DNA of 64,000 nucleotides from IMG/VR virus record IMGVR_UViG_3300020404_002650, positions 1,728 through 65,727 of that record. One strand, 5' to 3'. Made by a program: the position numbers and the translations under genes. This DNA is from a virus (lineage: Duplodnaviria > Caudoviricetes). Positions 1,840 to 42,372 of this stretch are shown here, one piece after another. The first letter of the stretch is position 1. Each line of letters opens with the position of its first letter. Below the pieces are notes generated by a model. That model saw only the letters and a program-made list of their open reading frames with translations, made no database searches and was not told where the DNA came from.

Positions 1840-2697
1840 ATGACAGAAAACACAAACCCACTAGGCAAGTACTACCGTCAACCGCAGGTGTACATCAAAC
1901 TACCCAGCAAGGGCAAATACTACTCTCCGGATGTATTCACACCTTCTGAGACAGGTGAGATACCTATACTGCCCATGACTGCCAAGGACGAATTAGCATT
2001 TAAAACACCTGATGCAATGATGAACGGACAGGCGACAGTCGACGTGATTAAATCGTGTGTGCCAAATATTAAGAATCCGTGGAAAATGGTCAACTACGAC
2101 ACAGACACAGTGCTTTTGGCCATAAGGATTGCCACATATGGCGAAACAATGGACATCACTTATGTAGTGCCTGAAATAAACCAATCAGCATCGACCACTG
2201 TCAACTTACCGGCTATGCTCGAAGGTGTATCAAACATAGATCCACAGGATTACGCCACTACAAAATCAGGATTTAAAATTAAGATTGATCCACTTACCTA
2301 TGACAAACTGAGTAAGATACAAGTGGCACAGTTCGAACAACAGAAGATATATTCGAACGTGGCAGAAAGTGGATTGACAGAAGCACAGAAGTCAGAAAGG
2401 TTTGCAGAAAGTTATAGAAAAATGCAAAACATAAATGTCGAATTACTGATCGACAGTATAGCAGAGATAACCACACCTGAAGGACAAACAGTCAAAGATG
2501 GTAAACAGATATTTGATTTCATATCAAACTGTGACACGAAGATCACAAAAGAGATAGAAATTGTTTTAGGAGAATTAAGATCACAATGTTCAATGAAGCC
2601 ATTACAAGTTAAGGCAACGGAAGAACAGATTAAGAAGGGTGTACCTGCCTCGTATGAGGTTCCTGTTACATTTGATACTGCAAATTTTTTCGGATAG
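1840..2697 (+). CDS. gp26: T4 gp26-like baseplate hub / tail assembly chaperone
   Basis: NPLGKYYRQPQVYIKLPSKG, PMTAKDE, LLAIRIATYG and C-terminal FDxxNFFG typical of gp26-like proteins; late promoter upstream. Confidence 0.7.
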   Translation: MTENTNPLGKYYRQPQVYIKLPSKGKYYSPDVFTPSETGEIPILPMTAKDELAFKTPDAMMNGQATVDVIKSCVPNIKNPWKMVNYDTDTVLLAIRIATYGETMDITYVVPEINQSASTTVNLPAMLEGVSNIDPQDYATTKSGFKIKIDPLTYDKLSKIQVAQFEQQKIYSNVAESGLTEAQKSERFAESYRKMQNINVELLIDSIAEITTPEGQTVKDGKQIFDFISNCDTKITKEIEIVLGELRSQCSMKPLQVKATEEQIKKGVPASYEVPVTFDTANFFG

Positions 2698-2972: not shown

Positions 2973-3290
2973 ATGTCAGAACGAGATCTAGTTCGAGAAC
3001 TTAAAGAAAACATCAAGGAACTTACGCAGGACCGTGATGATGCCTTGGCGAAATGCAAGTCCAAGGAGAGTCGTATGCGTCAGGTCATGATCAAATTGGA
3101 ACACGCCACCGACGACGTGCAGAGCATGGGACACAAGATAGGTGAGCAGAACAAGAAAATGGCAGATCTCGAGGCCAAACTGGAGACCAAAGAACGACTG
3201 CTTGAACAGGCACTGGAAAGGATCAAATCACTGACTGATGACTCAACAGAAAAAACAGAACCCCACACAGACGATAAAGAACTGGATTAA
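2973..3290 (+). CDS. Hypothetical coiled-coil protein
   Basis: 105 aa, heptad-like K/E/L-rich. Confidence 0.7.
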   Translation: MSERDLVRELKENIKELTQDRDDALAKCKSKESRMRQVMIKLEHATDDVQSMGHKIGEQNKKMADLEAKLETKERLLEQALERIKSLTDDSTEKTEPHTDDKELD

Positions 3291-3756
3291 GGATTTCGTA
3301 ACCAAACCCAATCCGGTGTTCGGCAACCTACCGCCTTGTCCGTTTGCACAGAAGGCCATAATAGATGACAAGGTGGAGTTCGTGGAAGTGCCTCGCGACG
3401 CAGACTGGCGACAGGTGTACAGGCACATATGCACGTTCGACAGCACAGAGAAAGATGTGCTGTGCATCATATGTGAACAGGACACGTTCACTGCCCAGCA
3501 GACCATCAGCATGGCGGAAGAATGGTTCAACGAGAAGCAGATGTCACGTGATGTCGTGATACTGGAGGATCATCCCGACATAGACGAACACGTCAAGCAG
3601 GTCAAACTCAACAACGGGCATTACACACTCTTCCTGGTGCAGAGCCTGAGCAAGTTGAACAAGTTTTCAAAAATGTTGGAGTCAGGACCCTACTACAAGA
3701 ATTGGTCTAGTTCTTATCTGGAATCAGTGAAAGGTTTCCGAGCTCGGAAAACGTAG
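3238..3756 (+). CDS. Hypothetical protein (CPFA motif, DUF1415-like)
   Basis: WIKDFV...PCPFA and EDHP motifs. Confidence 0.6.
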   Translation: MTQQKKQNPTQTIKNWIKDFVTKPNPVFGNLPPCPFAQKAIIDDKVEFVEVPRDADWRQVYRHICTFDSTEKDVLCIICEQDTFTAQQTISMAEEWFNEKQMSRDVVILEDHPDIDEHVKQVKLNNGHYTLFLVQSLSKLNKFSKMLESGPYYKNWSSSYLESVKGFRARKT

Positions 3757-4474
3757 TCAGTTTGGAATCTCGCCTGCACAGTCGCTTGTACATCCTGCGA
3801 TTGTTGGTCCACTCCACTCCCGTCCACCATTCGAATCCACGCCACGACGCCTTGTACTCCGACGACCGCTCGTAGCCGGAACCCAGGTAGTAGAACGGCA
3901 CGTAGTTTTCCCTGGCCCATTGCAGTTCGAGGTCCAGCGTCATTGCGCCTATGGGTGCTATGTTGGCGTGTATGCAACTCTCCACTCCCGAGTACTCCAC
4001 GTGCGGATCGCCGATCTGTTGGTAGTCCTGGTCCTCGGCGCTGTACAACTTCTGTTTGGTGAAACCCACTATGTTGTCAGCGGTGCCGGTGTAGAACACC
4101 ATGAACCTGTCACGTGCATGATGGTGACGGAACGGTGTGTAGTCCGCGCCAAATTTTTTGCGTTTCATGTATCGTTCGTATATGTGCGGCAGTCCCAACA
4201 GCCTCACCATGTCGGAGGCCTCGATTATCTTGTACTGTATCTGTTTGCCGTTGAGTTTGTGTTCACGGAACCTGGGACGGTATTTCCGCATGTTTATCCG
4301 GGTCACACGTGATTGGTAGAACACCTCCTTGCCGTGCACCGGCTCGTCCAGCGCCAGCCATCCGTGATCTATGGCACCCTGTTCCTCGTCCGGTTCGAAT
4401 ATGCACATGGGTTTGGCCACAACAAGGTCCTGTTGTTCCTGTTTGCCGAACGTGTGGTCGAATAGCATCTGCAT
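3707..4474 (-). CDS. Bpt/ATE-like aminoacyl-tRNA-protein transferase (GNAT fold)
   Basis: C-terminal LELQWARENYVPFYYLGSGYERSSEYKASW resembles the ATE_C/Bpt signature (E-W-A...Y-Y-L-G...Y-K); N-terminal GW motif. Confidence 0.6.
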   Translation of the reverse strand: MQMLFDHTFGKQEQQDLVVAKPMCIFEPDEEQGAIDHGWLALDEPVHGKEVFYQSRVTRINMRKYRPRFREHKLNGKQIQYKIIEASDMVRLLGLPHIYERYMKRKKFGADYTPFRHHHARDRFMVFYTGTADNIVGFTKQKLYSAEDQDYQQIGDPHVEYSGVESCIHANIAPIGAMTLDLELQWARENYVPFYYLGSGYERSSEYKASWRGFEWWTGVEWTNNRRMYKRLCRRDSKLTTFSELGNLSLIPDKN

Positions 4475-4489
4475 GGTGTTAATACTTAA

Positions 4490-4895
4490 TGAGATTCAAC
4501 AGCCGGCTTACGCCATCTGAAACTTCGCTTACGCTCGTTTATTTTTTTAATTACGCTTCGCGTAATTTTGCGTCCCCTGTGGTAGATGAGCAGTCACAAT
4601 TCGGCTATTTCTAGCCGAACCGACTTGAACCCTGTGGTGAGTTCGCAGTCATCATACAATGCTGTCTTAACTGGGCGGTTGTGCTGTACCCATTCGCTTA
4701 TTCATCCAACGCGAGCCTATCATATCTTTGTATAATAATCTATGATAGACCTGGGGTTGCTTTTTCTCAGAGCCCCGATCATTTTTGCCATTTGCATCAA
4801 CGGATTCACCTGTCGCATTTCTGCCGCATTTCCGTGCTCACTTCATGGATGCTATGTTTGCCTTTGAGATTTTTTAAGAGTTGTTTGTGTGCCTA
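4490..4895 (-). ncRNA. Candidate structured non-coding RNA (or structured origin-like element)
   Basis: ~400 nt intergenic region with many hairpins; GAAA tetraloops and G-U pairs favour the minus strand; two repeated GACUGC...ACCACAGGG units. Confidence 0.55.
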
Positions 4896-4902
4896 TCGCA
4901 CT

Positions 4903-4931
4903 TGTTTATATGAGTTTTATTTTAAGGTCAA
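4903..4931 (-). promoter_or_regulatory. Putative promoter for the structured RNA
   Basis: Minus strand TTGACC (4926-4931) followed by TATAAACA (4903-4910); could be sigma70-like or late-like. Confidence 0.4.
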
Positions 4932-4949
4932 TCTTTTTGGCTTTAAATA

Positions 4950-5357
4950 TTGGCAATGTGGATTTACGAGCAAAAAGAAGTTGATGAATTACCAGAAGGA
5001 GTTGTAGGTTTTGTTTACCAAATCACAAATACAACTAATGGTAGGATGTACATAGGAAAGAAGTTGGCACGTTTCAAGCGTAGCAGGCCTCCTTTAAAGG
5101 GCAGGAAAAACAAGAGACGGTTCAGTGTAGATTCCGACTGGCGTGAATATTATGGATCAAGTGACGAACTGACATTGGATATTTTAAAATTAGGAAAAGA
5201 AAAATTTACTCGTGAAATATTATTCTACTGTAGGTCAAAGGCTCAACTGTCCTACATTGAGGCCAGGGAACAGTTTGCTAGAAAAGTACTTGAGTCTAAC
5301 GATTATTACAATGGTCATATCAGGGTGCGTGTACATGGCAAAGGAATCTTAAAATGA
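4950..5357 (+). CDS. denA: GIY-YIG endonuclease, T4 endonuclease II (DenA)-like
   Basis: GFVYQITN...MYIGKK, DWREYYGSS, YYNGHI; ~135 aa. Confidence 0.8.
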   Translation: MAMWIYEQKEVDELPEGVVGFVYQITNTTNGRMYIGKKLARFKRSRPPLKGRKNKRRFSVDSDWREYYGSSDELTLDILKLGKEKFTREILFYCRSKAQLSYIEAREQFARKVLESNDYYNGHIRVRVHGKGILK

Positions 5358-6999: not shown

Positions 7000-7028
7000 A
7001 AAACCCCCGACTAATCCTAGCCGAGGGC
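6998..7028 (-). terminator. Rho-independent terminator after the Hc1-like gene
   Basis: Minus strand CCCTCGGCTA/TAGTCGGGGG stem (with G-U pairs) followed by a T run. Confidence 0.7.
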
Positions 7029-7055
7029 ATTTTGGTTTTGCAAATCCAAAAATCG

Positions 7056-7244
7056 TTACGCAGTTTTTGCCGCGTTTTTAACTTCTTGAATTTCTTTTCT
7101 TCTTGCTTTGATCAATTTTGAAAGATTAGCAAGTGCTTTTCTGGCTCTTGTTGCAGAAGCCTTTACGCCCTTGTCTACGAACTTTCCATTTTCTTCTGAA
7201 TAAGTTTGTATTTCTGTCATGATCTGTTCATGTGTTTGTGACAT
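7056..7244 (-). CDS. Histone H1-like (Hc1-type) small basic protein
   Basis: KGVKASATRARKALANLSKLIKARRKEI motif; GGAAGGA RBS upstream. Confidence 0.7.
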   Translation of the reverse strand: MSQTHEQIMTEIQTYSEENGKFVDKGVKASATRARKALANLSKLIKARRKEIQEVKNAAKTA

Positions 7245-7344
7245 ATGTTTTTTCCTTCCTATTGTCGTACGATATAATTAATTAACATATGTGTAATTTA
7301 AGCACTAAAGAAGTGGTTTGTCAAATGTTTTTTTTGGTAAAGAT

Positions 7345-8172
7345 ATGTTAGATATAGAAAAAATTAAAATTACCGATCTTAATTCGGTACAACTGAAGGC
7401 TCTCGAAGATAATTTTCTCTATGATCTCAAAACAAAATGGTATACCGAAGAACAAAAACCAATCGGACATGAAGAGTTTGTGGAAAAAGCCTCTGCTTGG
7501 TTCTTGGGTACAAAGGTGAACAATTTACAAGGTATTGAAAAATTTCCCTGTGTTGATATCATAATGGGTTGCACACACTTCATAGAAAGTCTTGTAAGCA
7601 AACGTAAATGGGAAATTCAAATCCTGGATAAGGAATATGCCTACTATTCTCTAATGGGCAAACAACCTACAAAGCCGGGCGAACTAAAACCCAACGTTCC
7701 TTTGATTGTGTCATTGCCAAATTATTTTTATGGTGATAGACCTGACTGGGAAGCAGTTTTGAAGGAGTGTGAACAAAAGAGCATTGATATTCATGTTGAT
7801 TGTGCGTGGGTAACAGCCGCAAAGGGATTCAATCTAAACTTTGATCATCCAAACATAAAATCTTTTGCAATGAGCATATCCAAATATAATTTTTCATGGA
7901 ACAGAATAGGTTTGCGTTGGTCCAGGCAAAGATCTATGGACTCCTGCACACTTATTAGTGCTCAAAAGAAATATCCAGAATTAACAACATCTTTTGGTGC
8001 TTTTTTAATGGACAATTTGCCCAGAGATTATGGTTGGGAAAAGTATGGCGATGTTGTCGAACAAATTTGTAAAAAATTAGATCTTACTCCCACTATGTTT
8101 TTTTACGTAGTAAAAGATAAATCTGGTAAGTTGTATTCTGTTGGAGAAATTTTAGGAAAAATTAAACTATAA
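7345..8172 (+). CDS. PLP-dependent aminotransferase-like protein (short)
   Basis: HVDCAW...SFAMSISKY...RIGLR matches fold-type I D-x-A and S-x-S-K...R-I-G; ATG 7345 preferred over TTG 7318. Confidence 0.7.
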   Translation: MLDIEKIKITDLNSVQLKALEDNFLYDLKTKWYTEEQKPIGHEEFVEKASAWFLGTKVNNLQGIEKFPCVDIIMGCTHFIESLVSKRKWEIQILDKEYAYYSLMGKQPTKPGELKPNVPLIVSLPNYFYGDRPDWEAVLKECEQKSIDIHVDCAWVTAAKGFNLNFDHPNIKSFAMSISKYNFSWNRIGLRWSRQRSMDSCTLISAQKKYPELTTSFGAFLMDNLPRDYGWEKYGDVVEQICKKLDLTPTMFFYVVKDKSGKLYSVGEILGKIKL

Positions 8173-9937
8173 TTTCTACGTCATTTGCGTAGTTTGTGAA
8201 GCCATTTTCTTTTACCACTTTTAATACAGAATTAACTCTGCTTACTAATTCGTCTTTGTGTGATATAAGGAATATATTTTTCTTCTGTGTTCTCGACATG
8301 TCTTTAAGGACTGCCATAGAACTTTCAACTCCGGATACATCCATACCTGCATCTATAAGTTCGTCAATAAAGAGCAAGTTGATCTGTTGATATAAACTTT
8401 CCCATACATCTCTGAATGCCCAACTCATGCTGAGTATTAGCCTGTTTCTTTCACCTCTGCTCAGATTGTCAAAATCTAGTTCTCTGCCTAGTTCCTCAAT
8501 ACGCACACTTAGGTCTGCTTGGAATGTAACTGTGTGTGGCAATTTTACTTTGCCCAAGAAGAATGCTAGTCTTTGGTTTAGGTAGGTTAAGTTTTGTTCT
8601 ATAATCCTTGTTCTTATAAAACTGTCTTTTGCAGTTAATAATTTGTAAAGGAAGTCTTGGTGTCTATGTAGATCTTCCAATTCGTTTGCCTTTTCATAAT
8701 CAATTTTTTGTATGGCTTTTTTCTCTAGTTCTTCTATCTGTTCTGCATAGGTGTTCTGTTGTTTTTCCGTTCTGTCCAACTGTCTTTTTAGATCTTGCAG
8801 TGATCCTTTGTGGTTGTATGCCTCGTCTATTGTGTCGTAGTACGTATCGGGTATTTGTCCTATATCGCCTATCTCGTCTATGCCCTGTTGTATTTTTGCA
8901 AGATCGTTTTGTAGTTGTGTAGCGTAGTCGGTAGATTCTGTAAGTTGTTTTTTAAGTTTGTCCTGCAGATGTGTGTGTTTGTCGTCGTGCAGTTCCTGTT
9001 CGCATGTTGGACATTTTTGTTGTTCTGAAAATTGTAGATCTGCTCTTGTTTTTTCAACGTTGCTTTCTGCTTTAGTCAAACTGTTTTCGTGATATGCTTT
9101 TTCTTTTTCTAGACCACGCAGTGCTGTCTGCATTTCGTTGTGTGTCTGTAATTTTTTGTGTGCTTCTAATTCTTTTTTGATATCAACTTTTTCAAGTTCT
9201 GCTATTGCATCTTTGAAATTGGCTACATCGTCATCTTTCTGCTTTATCCATGCATTTGATCTTATTTTCAAACTCTCAATTGACTCCTGTATTTTTTCAT
9301 TGGAAGACATCATTGCATCAAGTTTCAATTTTTCTTCTGTAAGCATTTGTTTGGTTGTTTTCTGTTTTTCTTTTAGAAGGTCTGCTTTTTGTGAAAGAAG
9401 TGTTATTCCTAGTAATTGTTCTATTATTTCTCTTTGCTCTGCTTGTTTTGTTGATAGGAACGGTTGCGTATATGTGTTCAGTGCTATGATGTTTTTGAAC
9501 ATGGCATGAGTCATACCCATTAATTTGTTAATTTCCACCTGTGTTTCTCTGTTCTCACCTTGTGCTTCATTACTATCTGTTTTTTGTTCTATGTCGTTGG
9601 CGTAGAATCTAAATATCTGTGGTTTCCTACCTCTTTCTATTGTGTAGGTTATTCCGTTTTTTATAAACTTAACAGCAACTAACATACCTTTTTCGTTAGT
9701 CTTGTTTACAAGATTGTCTCTTCTGATGTTTGTGAGTGCTTCGCCAAAGAACACATAACTTAATGCGTTTATAATTGTAGTTTTACCTGTTCCGTTTCTG
9801 GCACCGGCGTCGTCACCGCCAAGGTCCATGTTTTCACCAATTACGAGGACAAGACTTTTATTTGAGAAGTCAATTGCCTGGGCCTGATTGCCCACGCTCA
9901 TGAAGTTTTTTACTGTAAGTTCTTTAATCGTTAGCAA
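8162..9937 (-). CDS. gp46: Recombination endonuclease ATPase subunit (Rad50/SbcC-like)
   Basis: KNFMSVG, Walker A NGTGKTT, CPTC zinc hook, LSRGE signature, LLFIDE, ISH. Confidence 0.95.
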   Translation of the reverse strand: MLTIKELTVKNFMSVGNQAQAIDFSNKSLVLVIGENMDLGGDDAGARNGTGKTTIINALSYVFFGEALTNIRRDNLVNKTNEKGMLVAVKFIKNGITYTIERGRKPQIFRFYANDIEQKTDSNEAQGENRETQVEINKLMGMTHAMFKNIIALNTYTQPFLSTKQAEQREIIEQLLGITLLSQKADLLKEKQKTTKQMLTEEKLKLDAMMSSNEKIQESIESLKIRSNAWIKQKDDDVANFKDAIAELEKVDIKKELEAHKKLQTHNEMQTALRGLEKEKAYHENSLTKAESNVEKTRADLQFSEQQKCPTCEQELHDDKHTHLQDKLKKQLTESTDYATQLQNDLAKIQQGIDEIGDIGQIPDTYYDTIDEAYNHKGSLQDLKRQLDRTEKQQNTYAEQIEELEKKAIQKIDYEKANELEDLHRHQDFLYKLLTAKDSFIRTRIIEQNLTYLNQRLAFFLGKVKLPHTVTFQADLSVRIEELGRELDFDNLSRGERNRLILSMSWAFRDVWESLYQQINLLFIDELIDAGMDVSGVESSMAVLKDMSRTQKKNIFLISHKDELVSRVNSVLKVVKENGFTNYANDVEIIV

Positions 9938-12225: not shown

Positions 12226-13059
12226 ATGGTATTCAGAGCAATAGGACAAGCGGTAAAAAAAGTGGCGGGAGGAGCCATTAACAAGACACTGGCAAGATTG
12301 ACAGGCGCAGGAATCAGCACAGATTCCAGGATTGTGCAATCACGAGCAAAATGGAGTTCACGTAGTGACAAGACTGACTGGCGGGTACGACTACAAGTGC
12401 CTAATGGGCCATTAAGGCAGTTTTTTGATTTTGAAAATAATCCATTAATGAAACCTTTGTCAGATTCAAACGGTATTTTTTGGCCATTGACTCCGGCAAT
12501 GGTAATACAGCATTCGGCAAACTATAATGCAATGGACATGGTTCACAGTAATTTTCCACACCAGGCATATCAAAACTCACAAGTAGATCAAATAAACATC
12601 ATTGGTGAATTTCCTGTTCAAAATTATGAGGATGCCAAACATTGGGTTGCAACGGTAAACTTTTTAAGGACTGCTACAAAAATGTTTTTTGGAACAGAGG
12701 AAGGCAGTTCAGGACTAAAAGGAAATCCGCCACCTATCATGCATTTATATGGTTATGGTGATAATATGTTTAACAAGGTTCCGGTTGTAATCAATACTTT
12801 CAACGTTGAACTTAGACCAGGCATTGACTACATATCAACAAAACAAGAAGCAAGTCCATATAGACAACTTACAGGACCAGACGCTGGTTTTTACCTAAAC
12901 GGTACAGGTGAGTCTCAATCATGGGCACCAACGCTTTCGAACATTTCTGTTCTAGTCACTCCTATCTACTCTAGAGATAGTGTCAAGAATTTTTCAATGA
13001 AAAAATTTGTGAATGGAGAACTTAACGGAAAAGGGACTAACGAAATAGGATTCATCTAA
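12226..13059 (+). CDS. Baseplate tail-tube initiator/cap-like protein
   Basis: DWRVRL, HSNFP, FLRTATKMFFG, GNPPP...GYG...VPVVI motifs; first gene of the baseplate operon. Confidence 0.6.
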   Translation: MVFRAIGQAVKKVAGGAINKTLARLTGAGISTDSRIVQSRAKWSSRSDKTDWRVRLQVPNGPLRQFFDFENNPLMKPLSDSNGIFWPLTPAMVIQHSANYNAMDMVHSNFPHQAYQNSQVDQINIIGEFPVQNYEDAKHWVATVNFLRTATKMFFGTEEGSSGLKGNPPPIMHLYGYGDNMFNKVPVVINTFNVELRPGIDYISTKQEASPYRQLTGPDAGFYLNGTGESQSWAPTLSNISVLVTPIYSRDSVKNFSMKKFVNGELNGKGTNEIGFI

Positions 13060-21400: not shown

Positions 21401-21976
21401 GACCAGATGAGAATCAATTACTCTGGTGTGCTTAACCCACTGAAATCATTATCAGATCAGATAATTTACCATCCTGTCAAATACAAAATTTTATTTGGAT
21501 CCAACGCCCCTGAGCCACTACAGGCAACTTTTAAGGTTGTTAAAAATCCTAAAACAAATGTTACTGACGCTGTAATCAAAACAAGAGTGATTGCCGCAAT
21601 TAACGAGTTTTTTGCACTGGATAATTGGGACTTTGGAGATACTTTTTATTTTACAGAACTTGCCGCATACATTCACAAAGAACTTGCACCAGACTTGTTG
21701 ACTGCTGTGATTGTGCCTAACGAATCAGAACAGAGTTTTGGGTCTCTGTTTCAAATTAATTCAGCGGCAGACGAAATTTTCATCAGTGGGGCCACCGTTG
21801 ATGATGTATCGATTATATCAGCACTAGGAGCCAATCAACTTGCGGCTTCTGGCACTGTGGTTACATCAACATCAACCACGTCAACGAACACAACTACGGG
21901 TTCAGCAGTATCAGGCTCTACTACATCAGGATCGGGATCAAGTTCAAGTTCCGGCAGTAGTGGGGCAGGTTACTAA
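18488..21976 (+). CDS. gp6: Baseplate wedge protein (gp6/baseplate J-like), 1162 aa
   Basis: [45 protein letters not shown]. Confidence 0.85.
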
Positions 21977-24900
21977 TGGCTGACACACCAATCAATTCAC
22001 AAGCAAATCAGGAAGTTGTAAAACAAGGTGACAACGAGTACAGAAGATCAGTACAACACCTTCCGGCATTCTACAGGACAGATACCAACCAACGTTTCTT
22101 GTCTAGCACTTTAGATTCTCTAATACAAAAAGGATCTCTAGAGAGATTAGACGGATTTATCGGACGGCAGGACGCCTACACAAGGGAGGTCACAGATAGG
22201 TATCTTGGTGCAACCAGTAGAGATAGATTTGCATATCAACTGGAACCTGCAGTAACCTATATTGATAACGATACAACATCTATCAATCCAGAAGACCAAG
22301 TTAAGTTCACTGGCACATATGATGACTATATCAATCAACTTAAATATTTTGGAGCCAATGTTGACAACCATGATAGATTAAACAAAGAAACTGCATACTC
22401 GTGGAACCCAGCAGTTGATTATGACAAACTTGTTAATTACAGGGAATACTATTGGGTGTCGGATGGACCAAGTGCTATAGAAATAGATTCAGTTGGGACA
22501 GGAGCAGAAGTTGAATTCAAAGTAGAAGCACTGGCGGACGACGGAACCACAGGCAGAGCATACAGTTTCCCACATAAGGAAAATTTACGTAATCCAGAAA
22601 TTACGCTTTATAGAGGAAACACATACAAATTTACAAAAAGTGAAACAGGACATCCTTTCTACATAATGTCCGAGCCAATATCAGGCGGGATAGCCGCGGA
22701 CGGATCAACATCGGTACATTACAACGAAGGTGTCACAAACAACGGTGTGCAAAAAGGTACACTAACATTTGTTGTTCCAACAGATGCCCCTAATACGTTA
22801 TACTATCAATGTAGCAGTCATGAAAACATGTACGGGGTGCTGAATATCAAGACTGTTGCTTCTAATTCACAGATTGAGGTAGAAGATGACATCGTAGGTG
22901 TAAAAAATTACAGCCTTAGAACACTTGCCCTATCAAACGGTATGAAGATAAAATTTAAAACCGATCTGGTTGCAAGTGCATATAAAAACAAAGAATATTA
23001 TGTAGAAGGTGTAGGTGATGCTATATCATTGACAGATGTCACATCTTTAGTAACACCAGAATCGTATTCCGATGACGGAACGCCGAAAGATAAAGATTAC
23101 ATTACAATCAAAAGGGACAGCAGAGATCAAAACCCTTGGTCACGTTACAATAGGTGGTTCCATAGAGATAATATTGACAAAGCGGCTACCGTTAATGGCA
23201 CTCCAAAAGTGCTTGATGAGAATGATCGAGCAAAAAGACCCATTATAGAATTTGATTCTGGATTGGCTTTATACAATCATGGAACAGTTGCAAAGGATCC
23301 TGTCGATCTATTTGACACAACTATTACTGATGCTTTGAGTGTAGTTCCTAGAGCAACAGGTTATTTTATAGACGGTGTTGAACTTACACAAGGAATGAGG
23401 GTAGTTTTTTCCGCGGACACAGATATCGCAGTAAAAAATAGGATTTACACTGTAAATTTTGTTACAGCAGGAGATTCAACGCAAGTGATTGCATTGGTAG
23501 AGACCAACATTGTCGGCGATAATGAAAACATTTATGTCAAACAAGGCACACTAGGTAAAGGCAAGAATTATTATTACGACGATACAAACAAAGTATGGAA
23601 GACTGCTCAATCTAAAACAAAATTAAATCAGCAACCTCTTTTTGGTATGTGGGACAATGACCATGTATCTTTTGATGACGCAACGACTTATCCCAATTCG
23701 ACTTTCGCGGGGGCAAAAGTTTTATCATTTGCAACTTCTGACAGTGCCACGGAGGATACCGTGCTGGGCATCAAAGTCAAATATAGAACAATTAACAATG
23801 TTGGAGATATTGTTTTTGAGTCAGATCACACGTCGGGTACTTTTACATACAAGACAGGTAAAAAAACAATTACAAAAAATTTAGCAGAAGGTCATTTACA
23901 TTACACTACAAGTAGGACAACACACAATTCTCGTAGTGCATGGATCAAAAGATCTGCATCTAGTAAACAAAGGGTGATAAGGACTTTTATAGTAGACGCA
24001 ACTGAAAAACAACTTTTTCCTATAGATTTTTTCAAAAATTCTGCCAGCCTAACAGATCTAGATATTTCCGTACAGGTTAACGGCGCAAGGAAGACTGTAA
24101 CAACTGACTACACACTAGTAGATGGCAGTACCAACAAGTACGTAAAGTTTAACGCAGAACTTAAGGTTGATGATCAAATAAGGATCGCGGGCCATAGCAG
24201 TGCTGACAAAGTCGCCAACAAAGGAATATACGAAGTACCTGAAAATCTTTCAGTAAACGGTTTGAACACAGCAACTAATGAATTTACTTTTGGACAAATT
24301 GTTAATCATGTAAAAGATATACTAGACAAAAACAGTGCGGTTACAGGATCAATACCAGGGCAGTCAAATTTGCGAGACAAACCAGATGCAAGGTTGTTAG
24401 GCGGATCTATTCAGCAACACGAAGCATCTATTGTACCGGCAATATTTGGTCTAACAGATCAAGAAACCAATGTACTAACAGCAATAGATTATGTAAACCT
24501 ACAATACGAACAATGGTACAATAGTTTCCTTACAAATGCAGTTGGCACTGCTTATGAAGGAGTTGCCAGAGACAGGGTTGACGAAATTATTGAAACAATA
24601 TCGGTAGGCAAAAACAGTAAGTTTCCTTTCTTTTATGAGGACATGATTGGATATGGGCAGAACGTGTCTACAAGAAGTTACACTGTCCAGGGAACATCGC
24701 AAAAGGATTACGCGATTGATTCTTTGCACGATATCACAAAATTAAGCAATAGAGCAGTCTACGTATATCTTAATGATGTGCAGTTGGTGTTGGGTTCAGA
24801 ATATACATTCAGCACAACAGATGATAGCATTAATATTTCAAAAGCACTGACCGTGGGTGACAAAATAGTAATTAAGGATTACGCTGACACAACAGGAAGT

Positions 24901-27900
24901 TATGTTCCTCCAACTCCGACAAAATTAGGAATCTATCCTAAGTTTAAGCCTGAGTCATACACTGATGACAGTTATACCACATCTACAAATGTCATAAGAA
25001 GACACGACGGTTCTATTATCAAGGCCTATGGCGACGAACGCGATGATCTTATTTTAGAATTGGAAAAAAGAATATACAACAACTGTAAGACAGCATACGA
25101 CAGTACAAACCTTGCATGGGGAGATGTGATGCCAAGTGTGTTTACATCAACAGAGTATACACGTAAACAAGTTGACGACACAATGGCCGCTGATTTTTAT
25201 GTATGGGCAGGCAGGAACAAAGTTCAATACATAAACAATACAGCGTTTTCGGAAGGATCTCCTTTCACATACAACTATTCGCTATCAACGGACAGGGTGA
25301 CAGGACAAAACCTACCTGGTTACTGGCGTGCCATTTACAAATTTTTCTATGACACAGATACACCACATTTGACACCGTGGGAGATGTTGGGTCATTCAGA
25401 GAAGCCAAGCACTTGGGAGGCAACGTATGGTGCGGCACCGTACACTGCTGGGAACGATGTCTTATGGAATGACATTGCATCTCATCAGGGTAGATACGGC
25501 AAGCCTGACGTAAGGACATATCTTCCTGTAGACGCATCTGGTAACCTATTAGATCCACTGGCTATCGGTATTGTTAATTTCTTTGACATTCCTGGCAGGG
25601 GACTACCATGGAAGTTTGGTGATCATGCACCAGCGGAGACTGCCTGGAGGCGTTCTAGTGCATATCCGTTCAGTGTTTTAAAAACTTTGGCTATTACAAA
25701 ACCTGCAAAATTCTTTGAGAACCTATTTGACGTATCTCGATTATCTATAAACTCGGCAGGTAACAAAATATCATCCGATACTGGAATAAGATTTAATCTT
25801 AATAAAGCCAAATATCATTTAGAAACAGAAACAGACGTAACGACAGGAGTCACTACGAGATTTATGACAGCAGGATATCAAGTTTTTGTAGTAAATTATT
25901 TGACAGGCAAAGGGTTGGATCCTAAGGCATTCTATTACGACAAGATGAAGAATCTTGATATTCAATTGGTTTACAAACTGGGAGGTTTTACAGACAAGGA
26001 TAATATTAAAGTTTTGACTGATTCTGTTTCGCCGGGTTCAACAGCAGGATCAAAATTTATACCGGACGAAAACTATAAAATAAACTTTAGGACATCAAAC
26101 CCAGTTGAAAGTTTTCAGTATTCTGGTGTGTTGATAGAAAAAAATACTGATACATCACTTGACGGGTCGTCACTACTTGGTGGGTTTAAAGTTTTAGGAT
26201 ATTCAACAACAAAACCATTTTTCAACTTCAATTATCCAGTAAAAACATCGACCAAATCTTCTTTGAAAGTTGAAGGTTCGGTTGGGGTAGATCAATTCAC
26301 AAATTATCAAGAAACAGTACAGACTATTCCATATGGATATGTTTTCACTACTGTACAAGACGTTGCAGATTTCTTGTTGGGATACGGAAATTATCTAGAA
26401 TCAGAAGGCTTTAAATTTAATAAATTTTCAAAAGAGATAAAAGAAACATTAAACTGGACAAATGCTGTTAGAGAGTTTTTATTCTGGACCACACAGGAAT
26501 GGGCACCTGGATCGGCAATAACAGTTTCACCTGCCGCGGACGGATTTGAATTAGACACCAACAACAGCATTGTTGGCAAGTTGAGGAACCTGGCAGGAGA
26601 TTATAGCATTGTTGATGCAGGCGGAAGAAAAATTGACATCAGAGAGATAAGCACAAAACGTTTAGGAAAAACTTTTGATCTTACAATGAAGTCGGCAGAT
26701 ATTGGTTTATATAACATCGAATTAAACACTGTTCAGAAAGAACATATTCTAATATTTGATAACAACACAGTGTTCTCCGATGTGATATATGATCCATTTA
26801 CAGGGTTCAGGCAACAAAGATTAAAAGTGGTTGGTTGGAAGACAGGTAACTGGGATGGCGATTATTATGCACCTGGGTTTGTATTTGATGCGGCGCAAGT
26901 TACATACTGGATCGCAAATACAGATTACAGAATAGGCGACGCAGTTGAATATCAAGGTAAGTTTTATGTTGCGTCCGTCAATCATAATGCAGGCGATAAG
27001 TTTATTAGCGATAATTGGGTGCTTAAAAATGACAAACCGGCGCCGCAACTTATTCCTAACTTCGAATACAAGATTGCACAGTTTAATGACTTCTATAATC
27101 TTGAGACAAATAATTTTGATGAATCTCAACAGCAACTTGCACAGAGATTAATAGGTTATCAGAGCAGGGACTACCTAGAAAACTTATTTGTAAATGATGT
27201 TTCGCAATACAAATTCTATCAAGGCTACATTAGAGAGAAAGGCACACAGAGTGCAATAGACAAAATTCTTAAAGCCAAGTATGAAAACTCAGATATTACT
27301 TTAAATTTTTATCCAGACTGGATGATAAGAACAGGACAATTTGGTAACCTTGACAGTATAGAAAATATACAAGTTACCTTAGACGACAAAACTATCAACA
27401 CAGACCCTTTAAGTTTAGAATTTTTTGACACAGAAAGTTTTTCAAAAGATTATGTGAGATCGGTAGGAGTGTTCAAGGATAATTTTTACTACAAACCGTT
27501 AGAATATACAGCGTCAGACACTTTCAAGCGTTATGACTTCACACAACCAGGCAAAGACAGGGACAATGTGCAGATTTACAAGACAGCAGGTTATCCTCAG
27601 GTCCAACAAGTGCAACATACAGCATTTTACATTCAGGATCTGTTGTCACTTGATGTTGAGTCAGTATCAAGAAATGATCTTATTTGGGTAGCCAGCAAAG
27701 AAAATGCAGACTGGGACGTTCTTAGAATGACGTTTTCAGGATTTAAGATTGACTCGTTACAACCAAACATCAATAACACACAAATGTTAATTAAATTTAC
27801 AGATTCACATGGATTGACCGCGGGCAGTGCCACAACAACGGCGGACTATTTTGCAATAACAAATAGTGAAAGCACAACATTAAACAGAGTCTACCGTGTT

Positions 27901-30900
27901 GCTAGTGTTCCTACCCACGATAGTGTGTTGGTGGAATACGACGACGATACAACTTTTATTCCTACATTAGCAGATGGTTCGACGGCAGACAGTTACGGCA
28001 ACATTTACAAATTTATTTCAGTAAGAATCAATTCGATGGACAATGTAAATGACAGGCTGGCATATTCAGAATATAAGGATAAAAACGACACACTTGAAAT
28101 TCCCGGCGATAAGGTATTTGCAGATGCTGACACATCTGGTTTGTGGCGTGTTTACGAAAAACAAGATCCATATACTGAAAAAATTATCAATTCGCCAAAC
28201 ACTACCACAAGTAACCAAGAGTTTGGATATCGTGTTGTGGCTAGGAACGATGGTAGGACAGTTGTTGTATCGGCACCTGGCAAAGGGCAAGGAGAAGTAC
28301 ACTTCCTATTCAGGACGTCACACAACGCAGGGACATCTTTTTCGACGCAGGCAACTGCAACAATGACAGAGAACGATGACAATACAAGCAGATTGGGAGA
28401 GTCATTATCAATAAGCACAGATGAAAACTTTGTTGTTGCTGGTGCACCATATACAAACACACTGGACAATGACGGCAGTACACGGCAGATAGATGCAGGA
28501 CTGATCAAGGTGTACGTATGGAATCCTGACAGATATCAATATGGAATACTAAACACGTTGACACCTCCAACTGATGGTTCGACCGAAAATGAAAATTTAA
28601 ATTTTGGTTGGTCGCACAAGATTGCCGAACCGACTGATGCATCAACAAGAAGCACAGCAAGGAAATACTTGTTTGTTTCTGCCCCTGGACATTCAAATGA
28701 CACAGGTGTGGTTTATATGTACACATGGGGAATAGGTGCTGATGGATCGACTTATGATACTTGGACGCAGGACGCATCGATAATGTCGCCAGCGGGCGGG
28801 TCGGCTCAGAGATTTGGACACAGGCTTGAAACAAATGATAATGGTGATATATTGGCAGTGAGTTCAATAGCACCTGGCAACGCTGGAAAAGTAGAAATAT
28901 TTGTTAGGCAAGGTGCTTCAGACGGTGACAGCACACAAAACACATTTACGCATGTGCAAACATTGACAGGAGTAACATCAGATGGTTCAACGCTGAACAC
29001 TGCATTTGGTGAGTCAATTGCTATGAGCAAAGACGGAACAACACTTATAATTGGTGCAACAGGAGTTGACGACGTACAAGTGGACGCAGGAGCAGTTTAC
29101 ACATACAAATGGAACGCGGATGGTTCTACTAACACATATACGCTACAACAAACAATTAATGCTCCTGATAAACTAGACAACGTAAGATTTGGATCAAGTG
29201 TGTCGTTGACACAAGACGGAACAAGGTTAGCAATTGGCGCCGAAAAATCTGCAAACCCTAGAGAAATGAAATTCGATTCAGGAGAAACAACTTTTGATTT
29301 ACAAGACACAAGGATTGTGGACACAAACGAAGGTTCGGGTGCTGTTTATACTGCTACAATATACAATTCACAGTATGTGTTAGACGATAGGTTAGTATCA
29401 ACAAAAGTGTCCTCGTTTGACGATTTTGGAAGAGGCGTCAGCATGTCTGCCAACAATCTCTTTATTGGTTCTCCGAACGATGAAGGCAATCCTGATCTAA
29501 CTAATGACGGAACAGTACATCAGTACGATTGTAACACAGACGGAGAGTATGCTTGGAAAAATTTAACAACAGAAACAAACTTTATCGACATTGAAAAATT
29601 AGGACAGGTATTTGACTTCAATAACGGTACAAAACAAATAGGAAATTACTACGATCTTTATGATCCAATAAAAGGCAGAATACTTGGACAGGCAGATAGA
29701 GAAATAAATTACAGATCACCTTGGGATCCTGCCACTTACAACACAGGAGATCAAAGCAATATTAAAACACCTTGGCTTGAAGATCATATAGGGGAAGTAT
29801 GGTGGGATCTAACAAAAATAAAATATATCTGGTACGAGCAAGACGATCAGCAATACAAAGTCAACAACTGGGGTAAATTATTTCCTGGCTCAAGCGTTGA
29901 TGTGTATGAATGGACAGAATCTAGCCTTTTACCTGAGGATTGGAATGGCCTAGTTGGTTCGGAAACCGGCAACAATAATAGTATATCAGGAATAGCAAAC
30001 CTACAATACAGTGTGGCACAAAGGTATGACTCCAGGTTGGACGCTTTGGTTGATGTTTATTATTATTGGGTAAAAAACAAAAACACGCTACCGAGAAACA
30101 GCGTGGTTCATAGGAAAAATACTACAGGTTATGTTGCCAATCTAATTTCTAATCCTAGATCTGGTGCAGTGCAATGGTATGCGGCAACAGATACTAATAA
30201 AATAATGATTAATAAATTATCTCCATTAATTAATTCTGATGTCGTTTTGAATATTGACATAAGGAAGAATGACTTCGAGGGAGATGCACACAGCGTATGG
30301 AAACTTGCAAGAGAGGGCGATAAGGATTGGAGGCCTAATGCCGAAATCGAAACCAAGTGGTGGGATTCATTGTGCGGACAAAACAGTGCAGGTGATGTTG
30401 TGCCTGATGTCAATTTACCTATATACAACAGGTATGGAAACAGCATTAGACCAAGACAAAGTTGGTACGTTGACAGGCTTGAAGCACTCAAAGAAATTAT
30501 TGACTACGCTAACAGCGTAATAAAGAAAACTCAATTGGCAGGACAAGTCAGCCTCGATAATTTGAACAGTGAAGACCCTGAGCCTACAGTAGAGAGTGGA
30601 GAGTGGGACGCATCTGTCGACACATACGCAGACCTAACTTACATCAATACTGCTGATATATCGGGCTCGGTAAACTATCTGGTCAAAGCAGACGAGACTG
30701 CCAATGACTTATGGGCGATATACCAATGGGATGGCACACAGTTTAATAGAACAAAAATTCAAACTTACAATACTTCGAAATATTGGAGTTACACAGACTG
30801 GTACGGCACTGATCCTGCTATCCATGAGATGATCCATAGTGAAAATACTCCTATCGATAAACAGGTAACTTTTGAATACGAACTAGACGCACTTGACCTT

Positions 30901-33900: not shown

Positions 33901-34623
33901 GCATTGCAATCGGCAACAGATTCAATTGGATACAGAATATTCAAGGATATGTTGAACAGAACTTTTTATAGAAGAATATCTAAAACACACACTACAATAT
34001 TGACCGAGACACTGCAAACCACAGACACAACAATTACTGTGGCAGATGGCACAAAACTTGCAGAACCTGGATTCACTATATCAACTGACGGAAGCACGAT
34101 CAGTGACAGGACGCCAGGTGTGGTGTTTATAGGCAAAGAAAGAATAGAATATTTTACCAAATCAGGTAACACGTTGGGACAATTACAGCGTGGTACTCTT
34201 GGAACAGGAATTAAGGAGCATGGATCAGGTGCAGAAGTGGTAGACGCATCTGGAACTCAAACCATACCTTATGTGGACACAGTACATACCAATACCTTTA
34301 CGGGTGATGGTAGCACGGCAGTGTTCACTTTATCACAAACACCGGCTTCTGCTAGTGAGTTAGACATATTCATTGGTGGCCAACGAGTGTTGCTCACTAG
34401 CGAGGACGGTTCAACAATCAACTATTCTGTGGACGGAAGCACAACTGCTGTGACATTCACAACAGCACCTGCTGACGCTGAACAGATCAAAATACTACAC
34501 AAGAGAGGACAGGTATGGACAACAGCGGCTGATGGTAATCCTGGCGACGGCAAGGGATTACAAGGATCAACTACTGCACAGGCTAAATTCATAGCGGATG
34601 AGCCTACAAATGCACCTGAATAA
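21976..34623 (+). CDS. Giant (4215 aa) baseplate/virion structural protein, gp7-like position
   Basis: Follows gp6. HLPAFYRT N-terminus, [20 protein letters not shown]-like propeller repeats, CBM5/12-like repeats, cupredoxin-like motif, GDGST repeats, C-terminal ERIEY...QRGTLGT. Confidence 0.8.
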
Positions 34624-41843: not shown

Positions 41844-42372
41844 AAATTTTGCAAACAAAAACAGCGAATGTGATGTACTGACTTTTGCACCTGAGGATAG
41901 GACTGATTTGCTGAAACGTCTCAAAGGTATAGATTTTGCCAATGAAGAAATTGCCAACAATTATGAAGGCATAGATTGGTTTGCTTTTGACTGCGTGACA
42001 GTGTTGATGAAAGATGATGAAATTTTAGGATTCAGTTCTGTGTGGCATAGGCCGGAATATTATGAACCTGGAGAAGCAAGGATATTAAATAGGTATTGGG
42101 AACATCCAAAATTGAGAATGAACGGCAGAATCATTGCACGACCACACTTGATTGCGACTGTTGAGCATCAGTTGAAGTTTGCCAAGGATGCAGGCTACAA
42201 AAAAGTGTTCATCAGTAGATGTCGTAACCCAGGATTTATGAAAAGACTTTTTATTGAATTAGGACAAAAAACAAACACACAGTGGAAATTGCACGATGGT
42301 AAGGTAGCAGTGTGTGATCCAAAACACGATTCATGTTGGCAACACAAAGGAACTTATGAAATTAAAAACTAG
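41824..42372 (+). CDS. GNAT-like protein
   Basis: ILGFSSV, RILNRYW, QLKFAKDAGYKKVFIS. Confidence 0.5.
   Translation: MFTVGDKNFANKNSECDVLTFAPEDRTDLLKRLKGIDFANEEIANNYEGIDWFAFDCVTVLMKDDEILGFSSVWHRPEYYEPGEARILNRYWEHPKLRMNGRIIARPHLIATVEHQLKFAKDAGYKKVFISRCRNPGFMKRLFIELGQKTNTQWKLHDGKVAVCDPKHDSCWQHKGTYEIKN

Follow-up and report, generated by a model that had tools for sequence, protein, structure and literature searches.

A non-coding gap in this viral DNA probably (we put it at about 60%) holds a free-standing gene, read from the minus strand, for a new family of tightly folded phage non-coding RNA of about 400 nt, which would act in trans rather than as a leader. That a structured RNA family exists here is close to certain. 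Compensatory base-pair changes among its homologues exceed those in controls, which is what marks a structured non-coding RNA. An earlier note made from the sequence had proposed an ornate minus-strand RNA of this size, and covarying helices, a pseudoknot, GNRA loops and a conserved promoter now back that proposal.

The locus and its promoter

In the window (the whole 64,000-nt stretch of DNA that was analysed), the non-coding gap occupies 4475-4949, between a 255-aa ORF on the minus strand and a GIY-YIG ORF on the plus strand. The earlier note called it the only long non-coding gap, which is nearly right: at 7000-7317 there is one more gap that reaches 200 nt and contains no 70-aa ORF. No conserved reading frame was found in the gap, and 871 of the 969 indels in homologues relative to the window are not multiples of three. 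From one homologue to the next, stop-free stretches shift in frame and position, and a coding reading was rejected. The genes and promoter elements are as follows.

3707-4474, minus strand: gene for a 255-aa ATE1/Bpt-like aminoacyl-tRNA-dependent transferase, a neighbour of the RNA but not a constant partner
4497-4901, minus strand: gene for the RNA, about 400 nt, placed by conservation and covariation, with both ends predicted
4905-4910, minus strand: -10 box TATAAA, with the RNA start predicted at about 4901-4898
4926-4931, minus strand: -35 box TTGACC of the RNA promoter, invariant in 4 protein-anchored homologues
4950-5357, plus strand: gene for a 135-aa GIY-YIG nuclease of the DenA/SegE type (Pfam PF19835, E 8e-36)

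The promoter-like sequence noticed earlier just upstream of the RNA (-35 at 4931-4926, -10 at 4910-4905) is present and conserved and is of the sigma-70 type. Of 90 sequences, 34 have TTGAC and, at N15, a -10-like box; TTGACC-N17-TGTTATATA can be read in others. Conservation across 83 sequences extends from 4949 to about 4500. Assembled contigs (Logan) of four RNA-library runs from three studies cover 4504-4842 and its neighbourhood; these runs were chosen by this very stretch, DNA carry-over is possible, and the contigs give no strand, ends or level, cannot rank genes, and carry no information where cover is absent. The sole contig of RNA run X17 and two of the four contigs of X20 lie inside 4504-4842. 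Where the transferase gene is missing, a U-rich tail follows the terminal hairpin in 9 of 21 loci; where it is present, in 8 of 39. The terminator would thus be weak or absent in many loci. This tendency is too weak for the tail to mark a free 3' end, and that use of it was dropped.

The GIY-YIG gene, from which the RNA diverges as the earlier note had it, is found at the equivalent place in 72 of 99 loci. Its product has its best cultured relative in phage Melnitz (61%), where the locus around the homologue has no gap and no match to the covariance model R1. The 255-aa protein of the window itself gave no Pfam match, and 3 of 24 members of its family match ATE_C (best E 5.9e-8) and 2 of 24 match Acetyltransf_6. 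With its AlphaFold model (mean pLDDT 80), the top Foldseek match in the PDB is human ATE1 (8tzv_A, E 6.1e-7, TM 0.58), followed by MprF C-domains and FemX. The model predicts the double-GNAT fold of tRNA-dependent transferases, and the ATE1 match together with ATE_C in the relatives bears out the earlier description of the gene as aminoacyl-transferase-like.

Helices, pseudoknot and twin repeat units

The earlier note had named covariation among homologues as a check, and covariation is present: of 78 pairs, 46 are double-changed, where shuffles average 34 (71 distinct sequences). Among 74 homologues (71 distinct sequences), 93.6% of cells are paired compared with 81.4% in shuffles, a level that none of 500 shuffles reaches. 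The covariation score is 0.400, against 0.174 when shuffled (again reached by 0 of 500) and at most 0.09 when the partners are slid. G-U and U-G pairs are frequent at many positions (UG 71/71, GU 54/71, UG 50/71). They would be A-C mismatches on the plus strand, and the minus strand is therefore the right one, as had been argued before. At G4827-U4808 the pair alternates with A-C (GU 54, AC 20). Single-sequence folding is marginal (z -2.70 for the minus strand, -2.09 for the plus strand) and cannot alone tell the strands apart. The elements of the RNA are listed here from 5' to 3'.

4852-4863, minus strand: 5' motif AGGCAAACAUAG, seen by reading the sequences and alignments of subtypes A, B and D
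4794-4852, minus strand: 5' domain of P2, P3 and P4, with covariation among 71 distinct homologues
4852-4848/4798-4794, minus strand: P2, 96.6% paired, 3 of 5 pairs covary
4835-4832/4803-4800, minus strand: P3, 94% paired, 3 of 4 pairs covary
4824-4815, minus strand: P4 hairpin of variable length, GAAA loop 4821-4818
4753-4776, minus strand: P5 and conserved internal loop GCUCU, 100% paired, double changes at 5 of 6 pairs
4715-4750 (4750-4737/4728-4715), minus strand: P6, long hairpin with loop 4736-4729, 11 of 14 pairs covary
4712-4709/4573-4570, minus strand: P7, tentative, 93% paired, no covariation in subtype A
4672-4692, minus strand: P9 hairpin, which holds the invariant 19-mer 4691-4673, with an 11-13-nt loop
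4653-4658, minus strand: 3' strand of the pseudoknot, pairing with P6 loop bases 4734-4729
4630-4651, minus strand: repeat unit 1 (UGACUGC, 6 bases, ACCACAGGG), changing in parallel with unit 2
4597-4622, minus strand: P10, 11-bp helix between the two repeat units, GAAA loop 4611-4608, 99.2% paired
4575-4596, minus strand: repeat unit 2, changing in parallel with unit 1
4545-4574, minus strand: variable expansion segment, missing in some lineages
4500-4541, minus strand: 3' module of P11 and P12, with covariation
4541-4537/4523-4519, minus strand: P11 with tandem G-A and GUAA loop 4532-4529, 98.6% paired, 4 of 4 pairs covary
4519-4500, minus strand: P12, terminal hairpin with GUAA loop 4511-4508, 3 of 7 pairs covary

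Hairpins that had been picked out from the single sequence hold up in the alignments. GCA-GAAA-UGC (P4) is a real hairpin of varying length (MAFFT pairing 69.6%, 3 of 3 pairs double-changed). The GGGG/CCCC stem is the outer part of P5 (4776-4773/4756-4753), in which 3 of 4 pairs covary among 71 distinct homologues; the inner strands are 4769-4768/4759-4758. The long stem at 4715-4750 is P6, where two tandem G-A positions are unpaired by design. The GAAA hairpin at 4600-4619 turns out to be part of the longer helix P10 (4622-4612/4607-4597), with four pairs double-changed. P5, P6 and P10 have different sequences in subtypes B and D (entirely different in P10) and are still paired there.

The pseudoknot has six base pairs, all of which change on both sides, and is 99.3% paired. 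Subtype B keeps its complementarity with UGAAU/AUUCA and UUGAA/UUCAA. P9 sits within a three-way junction with P8 (4697-4696/4662-4661) and P9b (4671-4664), and its closing pair 4692/4672 is CG in 49 sequences and UA in 21. The 19-mer of P9 is exact in 43 of 44 loci retrieved via another motif. In P11 the pair 4541/4519 is GC in 51 and AU in 8. The RNA has three or four GNRA loops. For the tentative P7, one compensatory change between subtypes A and B was seen by reading. Further candidate contacts are 4771/4705 and 4702 with 4618-4601. Among 62 distinct variants, the expansion segment of 24 forms a hairpin resembling a terminator; the window and several lineages lack it. No pairing partner was found for the 5' motif. 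Three proposed elements were dropped: a 5' hairpin, P1, which is lineage-specific and 68% paired; a mini-hairpin at unit 2, also 68% paired; and a UUGUG/CACAG stem at unit 2, which clashes with a covarying base of P10.

The two repeated units described in the earlier note (4651-4630 and 4596-4575) are real. Each is 22 nt long, with 7 and 9 conserved bases flanking a 6-base spacer, and the two lie 55 bp apart. A motif of 6-10 nt is identical in both units in 100 of 113 distinct RNAs and differs between lineages. It falls into at least eight classes, and control pairs across classes mostly share 3-4 nt. The columns of the motif covary between the two units, whereas no complementary column covaries with them. 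The motifs are identical and not complementary, and most classes are not palindromic. An identical, lineage-specific motif in both units points to one partner with two sites. Subtype D seems to lack the second unit. The complement of the motif is not enriched in the window, with 19 matches (two of them the units themselves) against 11.5 +/- 3.7 expected. The claim that unit 1 clearly presents ACCACA in a hairpin loop fared less well than the repeat itself and is weakly supported: pairing in the stem of unit 1 reaches 87%, with few double changes, and in the mini-stem of unit 2 it is 68%.

Distribution and comparison with known RNAs

The invariant 19-mer hairpin occurs on at least 120 viral contigs and on at least 118 from metagenomes, and all 80 metagenome loci that were fetched match R1. 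A second motif retrieves 30 further viral loci. Among 185,579 species genomes the 19-mer has seven matches, four in short MAG contigs with phage genes and three at chance level; a cellular origin was rejected on these matches. The carriers are uncultured marine myoviruses with T4-like genes. Part of the stretch occurs in sequencing runs from 15 studies (20 of the 24 runs listed). The homologues fall into four subtypes (A, B, C and D). R1 matches the window at 4782-4569 with 235 bits. Along the whole length of the model it also finds two other subtypes, B with E 3e-14 to 1e-9 and D with E 2.5e-8 to 1e-5. In 50,697 phage genomes there was no match to any of the four subtypes by blastn, nor to the 255-aa protein by tblastn.

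The earlier note could not assign the element to tRNA, tmRNA, RNase P or an intron, and the searches agree. Rfam 15 (4227 models at the gathering threshold, including GOLLD, ROOL, OLE, raiA, HEARO, IMES, RNase P, tmRNA, T-box and riboswitches) has no match in the whole window; this comparison, which the earlier note had suggested for GOLLD, ROOL, RNase P and tmRNA among others, thus returned no family. With E up to 10, the region 4300-5100 gives noise only, namely ceN54 (14.8 bits against 60) and GA-cis (13.3 against 34.7). Eight loci of other subtypes gave a single Rfam match, to a glutamine riboswitch that has nothing to do with the RNA. No tRNA or tmRNA gene in the window was reported by ARAGORN, a program that also recognises permuted tmRNA.

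GOLLD and ROOL are large ornate RNAs, often carried by phages and prophages, and both are larger than about 400 nt. Like them, this RNA has many covarying helices, GNRA loops and pseudoknotting, is carried by phages and, from its sequence, would form its own transcription unit. Unlike them, it is smaller, is marine, adjoins no tRNA genes, has twin units changing in parallel and matches neither in sequence or structure. OLE and raiA are non-coding RNA genes of bacterial chromosomes. Their size class is similar, and they share with this RNA highly conserved single-stranded junction and loop nucleotides, which suggest a precise tertiary fold or a bound partner. This RNA differs from both in being found, among the matches listed, only on phage-like contigs and in having no Rfam match.

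In the literature no description of this RNA was found, the candidate lists in the supplements of PMC10690425 aside. That study (Fremin, Bhatt and Kyrpides 2023) reports structured-RNA candidates of 29-151 nt from IMG/VR, 8,495 of them from DNA viruses. The source, IMG/VR intergenic regions, and the covariation logic are the same as here, but an RNA of about 400 nt is absent from the article's text (PMC10690425); single hairpins of this RNA may be among its candidates.

Free-standing gene, leader and other explanations

Among 68 distinct loci whose downstream sequence extends for at least 1100 nt, the transferase gene directly follows the RNA in 39, and 24 have no such gene in the locus. In the examined loci without it, the next ORF converges on the RNA (e.g., L007, L016, L097, L107 and L083). 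Elsewhere a transferase gene of 26% identity lies directly upstream and divergent (L009, L012 and L072), or a copy of 24% identity lies further upstream (L099). The statement in the earlier note that the RNA points directly into the transferase gene is true of the window and of these 39 loci, but there is no fixed tie between the two. A leader should always be upstream of, and co-oriented with, the gene it regulates, and this is not the case here. Therefore, the RNA looks free-standing.

A cis-acting leader of the riboswitch or T-box kind, controlling the ATE1/Bpt-like gene, is the less likely reading, though one with several observations behind it. Its fold would sense a ligand or a tRNA, and P7 or the terminator hairpin would decide read-through. 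Where the transferase gene follows, its start codon is about 25 nt past the terminal hairpin, leaving no room for a promoter of its own, and the enzyme family uses charged tRNA, so that the RNA, like known leaders, stands upstream of a co-oriented tRNA-using enzyme gene. In the 24 of 62 variants with the terminator-like hairpin, the 3' strand of the tentative P7 (ACGC) is the 5' half of that hairpin and a U run follows. Such a hairpin, sharing bases with a closing helix in some lineages, is a riboswitch-like layout, and the U-rich tail is also rarer where the transferase gene follows. However, this internal terminator is absent from the window and several lineages, P7 does not covary within subtype A, and a distant transferase locus (L006) has no such RNA. 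The loci that lack a downstream gene, with the next ORF converging, and those with an upstream, divergent transferase gene also argue against a leader. In addition, typical aptamers are far smaller than this RNA, neither a UGGN-type bulge nor a specifier layout was recognised in it, and no Rfam riboswitch or T-box model matches.

It is improbable that the RNA is a self-assembling RNA-only complex, with the pseudoknot or the twin units contacting other copies to form a multimer. The RNA is large, phage-carried and GNRA-rich, its loops and junctions are conserved, and covariation cannot separate pairing within a molecule from pairing between identical copies. Yet the twin motifs are identical rather than complementary and mostly non-palindromic, no Rfam match to GOLLD, ROOL, OLE or raiA was obtained, and the length is below that of GOLLD and ROOL. 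The precedent is that cryo-EM showed multimers of GOLLD, ROOL and OLE, according to excerpts of a preprint (bioRxiv 10.1101/2024.12.08.627333).

A mainly DNA-level element is very improbable. In that reading, a phage DNA-binding protein would recognise the 22-bp direct repeats as iteron-like or operator-like sites, either at a replication origin or within the control region of a divergent promoter. The bipartite direct repeats change in parallel, as sites bound by one protein would, and the region lies between divergent genes. But G-U pairs and compensatory changes show that strand-specific RNA helices constrain most of the 400 nt, including P10 between the repeats, which DNA binding sites would not require, and a conserved promoter is directed into the element.

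That the RNA belongs, as a very divergent member, to a known class (two-piece tmRNA, RNase P RNA or an intron remnant) is hardest of all to credit. A two-piece tmRNA, in many cases accompanied by a glutamine riboswitch, is encoded by marine myophages of the Melnitz-like group (PMC9004378), in which the GIY-YIG protein has its best cultured relative. The structured tmRNA of a few hundred nucleotides in these related phages also has an early-type promoter, and ACCA-containing motifs recall the tRNA 3' end. But the RNA has no tRNA-like domain, no conserved tag reading frame (the indels counted above) and a genomic place other than that of the tmRNA, CCA is not conserved given motif variants such as AGUACA, AGCACA, AGAUGAU and ACAUGAU, the element does not interrupt a gene, and both ARAGORN and the permissive Rfam search, in the window and in other subtypes, found no such RNA.

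As a free-standing gene, the RNA would be transcribed by the host polymerase early in infection and would end at or beyond the terminal hairpin; the transferase cassette, where it lies downstream, would probably be read through from the promoter of the RNA. The RNA would then act in trans as a folded scaffold or decoy, in which P10 holds the two 22-nt units side by side. Since the units carry the same lineage-specific motif, they would bind one sequence-specific partner twice, as two copies or at two sites. Such a partner might be a dimer of a phage or host protein, or an RNA. This twin-site mechanism is offered tentatively, as a possibility that the parallel change of the units suggests.

A bolder proposal, and a doubtful one, is a new class of phage effector RNA with a rigid core (the pseudoknot, the three-way junction and the invariant 11-13-nt loop) and two programmable 9-nt recognition sites. 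A host RNA, different from one host to another, would pair with these sites or be read jointly with them; or the core itself may be catalytic. If this were true, the phage could, early in infection, use the RNA to trap or inactivate a host RNA, be it a tRNA, a regulatory RNA or a component of a defence system.

Few large non-coding RNAs with an intricate fold and no assigned function are known, and GOLLD, ROOL, OLE, raiA and HEARO each led to new biology or to a new RNA architecture. Ocean metagenomes, from both the viral and the cellular fraction, contain the RNA described here in abundance. It has a core hairpin that hardly varies, and its pseudoknot and most of its helices are backed by covariation. 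It is a ready target for cryo-EM, SHAPE and metatranscriptome mapping. Two units that change in step are an unusual signature and give a direct handle for finding the partner. The RNA also marks a clade of uncultured marine giant phages.

Genomic setting and distribution of the RNA

The source IMG/VR record is 65.7 kb long with a completeness of 18% (CheckV). The putative RNA gene lies in its window among the following genes.

Genes around the RNA (window positions)
1840-2697, plus strand: baseplate hub gene
3238-3756, plus strand: 172-aa ORF, with a weak match only to DUF6875 (PHROG 28122)
3707-4474, minus strand: 255-aa ORF (transferase gene)
4475-4949: gap holding the RNA
4950-5357, plus strand: GIY-YIG gene, 135 aa (Pfam PF19835, E 8e-36)
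8162-9937, minus strand: SbcC/gp46-like gene

Among cultured phages, the gp46-like protein has its closest relatives in jumbo phages (e.g., Pseudomonas phage PA5oct, 48% identity), and the GIY-YIG protein has its closest in the marine methylophage Melnitz (61%). From these surrounding phage genes and their cultured relatives, the RNA is assigned to an uncultured marine myovirus that has T4-like genes.

An uninterrupted ORF of 4215 aa (21976-34623, plus strand) follows three others, of 1162, 813, and 735 aa; the 813-aa ORF matches Phage_base_V and Peptidase_S74. The 4215-aa product is probably a giant structural protein of the tail or fibre type. Genes at 42314-43985 and 52436-58470 (plus strand) encode an Asp/Asn beta-hydroxylase-like protein, a TauD-family dioxygenase, and three radical-SAM proteins (one with SPASM), and look like a phage peptide- or metabolite-tailoring set. 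A second gap without any ORF of at least 70 aa (7000-7317, 318 nt) has no match in the Rfam search.

The RNA exists as a single copy in the window. Anchoring on the 255-aa protein locates three complete relatives in viral contigs; the proteins are 65-89% identical and the full upstream gaps 76-88% identical at the DNA level. A 19-mer (4691-4673, the core of hairpin P9), invariant in the window and these three relatives, was chosen as search pattern. It has at least 120 matches in viral contigs, at least 118 in metagenome contigs, and seven across 185,579 prokaryote species (one genome each). Four of the seven are genuine homologues, on short contigs of MAGs that also carry the flanking phage genes; the other three have the 19-mer alone in common, about the chance expectation. 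Since such a search makes the 19-mer invariant by construction, it was repeated with 26 bases of the 3' module as the pattern, which finds 62 viral contigs. The exact 19-mer is kept in 43 of the 44 distinct loci of this set with enough upstream sequence, and one differs at two bases. The P9 hairpin is therefore almost invariant. The only homologue seen with an altered hairpin, on viral contig L138, has two neighbouring loop bases swapped, which may reflect natural variation or an error in sequencing.

Parts of the stretch are present in 20 of the 24 sequencing runs listed (15 studies, nearly all marine or seawater). Assembled contigs from four RNA-library runs of three studies cover the RNA: run X17 has a single contig at 4569-4761, and two of the four contigs of run X20 lie inside the RNA (4504-4658 and 4674-4842). 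These contigs are compatible with a transcript rather than proof of one. The transcript would run from about 4901 to about 4497, and presumably acts in trans.

Structure and covariation

The earlier note had read the gap as a structured minus-strand ncRNA, and the features it listed are all present on the minus strand of 4475-4949. The gain of single-sequence folding over shuffles is only marginal and hardly separates the strands (z-score -2.70 for minus, -2.09 for plus); the evidence accordingly comes from comparing homologues. Aligning the window with the three anchored relatives already reveals compensatory changes in two elements noted earlier, the GGGG/CCCC stem and the long hairpin. Full flanks are available for 90 viral loci, which include 83 distinct ones; 74 of these give a good alignment over 4912-4488. 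Helices and the long-range pairing were located by an APC-corrected covariation scan.

Helices of the RNA model (minus strand)
5' domain: P2, P3, and the variable hairpin P4, with a G-U pair alternating with A-C
P5: helix with a conserved internal loop
P6: long hairpin, whose loop (4734-4729) pairs with 4658-4653 as a pseudoknot
Three-way junction: P8, P9 (the invariant hairpin), and P9b
P10: 11-bp helix with a GAAA cap
3' module: P11, with tandem G-A pairs and a GUAA loop, and terminal hairpin P12, with a GUAA loop
P7: tentative closing helix, 4712-4709 with 4573-4570

Pairing in the written-out model, counted on a fresh MAFFT alignment (A3) of the same 74 sequences as used in the scan
Cells forming standard pairs: observed 93.6%; shuffles 81.4% (0/500 reach the observed value); slid partners 32-41%
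Pairs changing on both sides: observed 46/78; shuffle mean 34
Covariation score: observed 0.400; shuffles 0.174; slid partners at most 0.09

The pseudoknot is 99.3% paired with both-side changes at all six of its pairs, and the closing pair of P9 covaries (CG 49, UA 21). P7 is 93% paired with no covariation within the subtype of the 74-sequence alignment. Positions that are mostly G-U would become A-C mismatches on the opposite strand, which confirms the minus-strand assignment. No conserved reading frame is found by comparison of homologues. The covariation on 74 homologues supports the ncRNA reading, and the finding is real, with structure and distribution both demonstrated. A4702 covaries with the P10 pair U4618-A4601 (AU 67, UA 7), and U4771 in the P5 internal loop with A4705 (UA 68, AU 3). 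These few events may indicate tertiary contacts or a base triple.

Some loci have only about 22 bases in common with the window by blastn, yet share its neighbouring genes; read by eye, such divergent loci retain the modules with different sequences. The core (window 4782-4568) was made into covariance model R1, with 216 positions and 42 pairs. R1 matches subtype B loci at full length (E 3e-14 to 1e-9), subtype D loci (E 2.5e-8 to 1e-5), and all 80 fetched metagenome loci (E 4.5e-8 or better). Only the 19 bases are matched in the three chance loci, and neither the locus of Melnitz nor L006, a distant transferase locus, has a match. In a model-guided alignment, which is fitted to R1 and so biased towards the model, subtypes B and D keep P5, P6, and P10 paired although the sequences differ. 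Subtype B retains the pseudoknot complementarity.

Promoter and neighbouring genes

A promoter-like sequence had been noted upstream of the RNA, and it proves to be a conserved sigma-70-type promoter. In 34 of 90 sequences, a spacing of 15 separates the -35 box TTGACC from TATAAA; many others have 17 bases between TTGACC and TGTTATATA. An A/T-rich block, TATTTAAAG (4941-4949), adjoins the GIY-YIG start codon upstream and is as conserved as the -35 box of the RNA promoter. The block may serve the divergent GIY-YIG gene in translation initiation or as a promoter.

In a survey of 111 distinct loci, the divergent arrangement with the GIY-YIG nuclease gene, as described for the window, is found at constant distance in 72 of the 99 loci whose upstream sequence is long enough. 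Directly downstream, 39 of the 68 loci with enough sequence on that side have the transferase gene, into which the RNA was said to point. It is not a constant partner: it is elsewhere in the locus in five and absent from 24, and the next ORF is convergent on the RNA in those examined of the loci that lack it. In L009, L012, and L072, a 26%-identical transferase gene is directly upstream and divergent. These arrangements indicate that the RNA is an independent unit, with the transferase cassette and its convergent 172-aa partner often, not always, inserted behind it, as far as gene order can tell. They also count against the RNA being a leader of the transferase gene. In some phages the RNA may nevertheless be a leader, because a U-rich tail follows the terminal hairpin in just 9 of 21 loci without the transferase gene and 8 of 39 with it, there is no space for the gene's own promoter between the RNA and its start, and a terminator-like hairpin sharing P7 bases exists in 24 of 62 distinct expansion-segment variants (absent from the window).

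The label "aminoacyl-transferase-like" for this gene holds. Although the window protein has no Pfam match, ATE_C is matched by three and a GNAT family by two of 24 family members, and the predicted structure (pLDDT 80) is closest to human ATE1, with MprF and FemX next. The family has 288 relatives; among the matches listed, all are unnamed or merely "hypothetical protein". The 172-aa ORF is convergent with the transferase gene, overlaps its end, and accompanies it in nearly all loci reaching far enough. Loci without the transferase gene also lack this ORF, except for 28-31%-identical matches in five divergent loci. The two look like a single inserted cassette.

Known RNAs and the twin units

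The lack of resemblance to tRNA, tmRNA, RNase P, or an intron reported earlier is borne out: none of the subtypes has a match in Rfam 15, ARAGORN detects neither tRNA nor tmRNA genes, and cultured phage genomes have no match to the RNA. A two-piece tmRNA and glutamine riboswitches are reported in related marine myophages (PMC9004378); this RNA is neither. L117, a contig with a subtype C RNA, has a glutamine riboswitch aptamer at 12370-12419 (plus strand; Rfam RF01739, 44.5 bits), in agreement with reports of such riboswitches in Melnitz-like phages. A large IMG/VR screen gives candidate RNAs of 29-151 nt, and its text, as far as consulted, has no RNA of about 400 nt like this one (PMC10690425); the comparison is with the text, and fragments of the RNA may be among the candidate lists. 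No description of the RNA turned up in the literature searched, and it is filed as a new family among the known large, ornate phage-borne RNAs of unknown function.

The two repeated units described earlier (22 nt; 4651-4630 and 4596-4575) flank P10, and each reads UGACUGC, six bases, ACCACAGGG. The variable positions of the two change in parallel (AA 59 with GG 13; CC 54 with GG 14), and the covariation scan finds no complementary column covarying with them. An identical motif of 6-10 nt is present in both units in 100 of the 113 distinct RNAs having both anchors; the other 13 belong to subtype D, or are cut short or wrongly anchored. The motifs fall into at least eight classes: ACCACAG(G), AGCACAU, GCCACAG, AGUACA, AGAUGAU, AGAUGAG, ACAUGAU, and ACUACAAG. 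As a control, unit pairs from different classes mostly have 3-4 nt in common.

Presentation of ACCACA in a hairpin loop is weakly supported: the stem of unit 1 shows 87% pairing and little covariation, and the mini-stem of unit 2 shows 68% pairing. Local stems do not account for the twin motif. Within the window, no enrichment is seen for the complement of this motif. In the simplest reading, one outside partner, differing between phage lineages or hosts, would recognise both units of the RNA.
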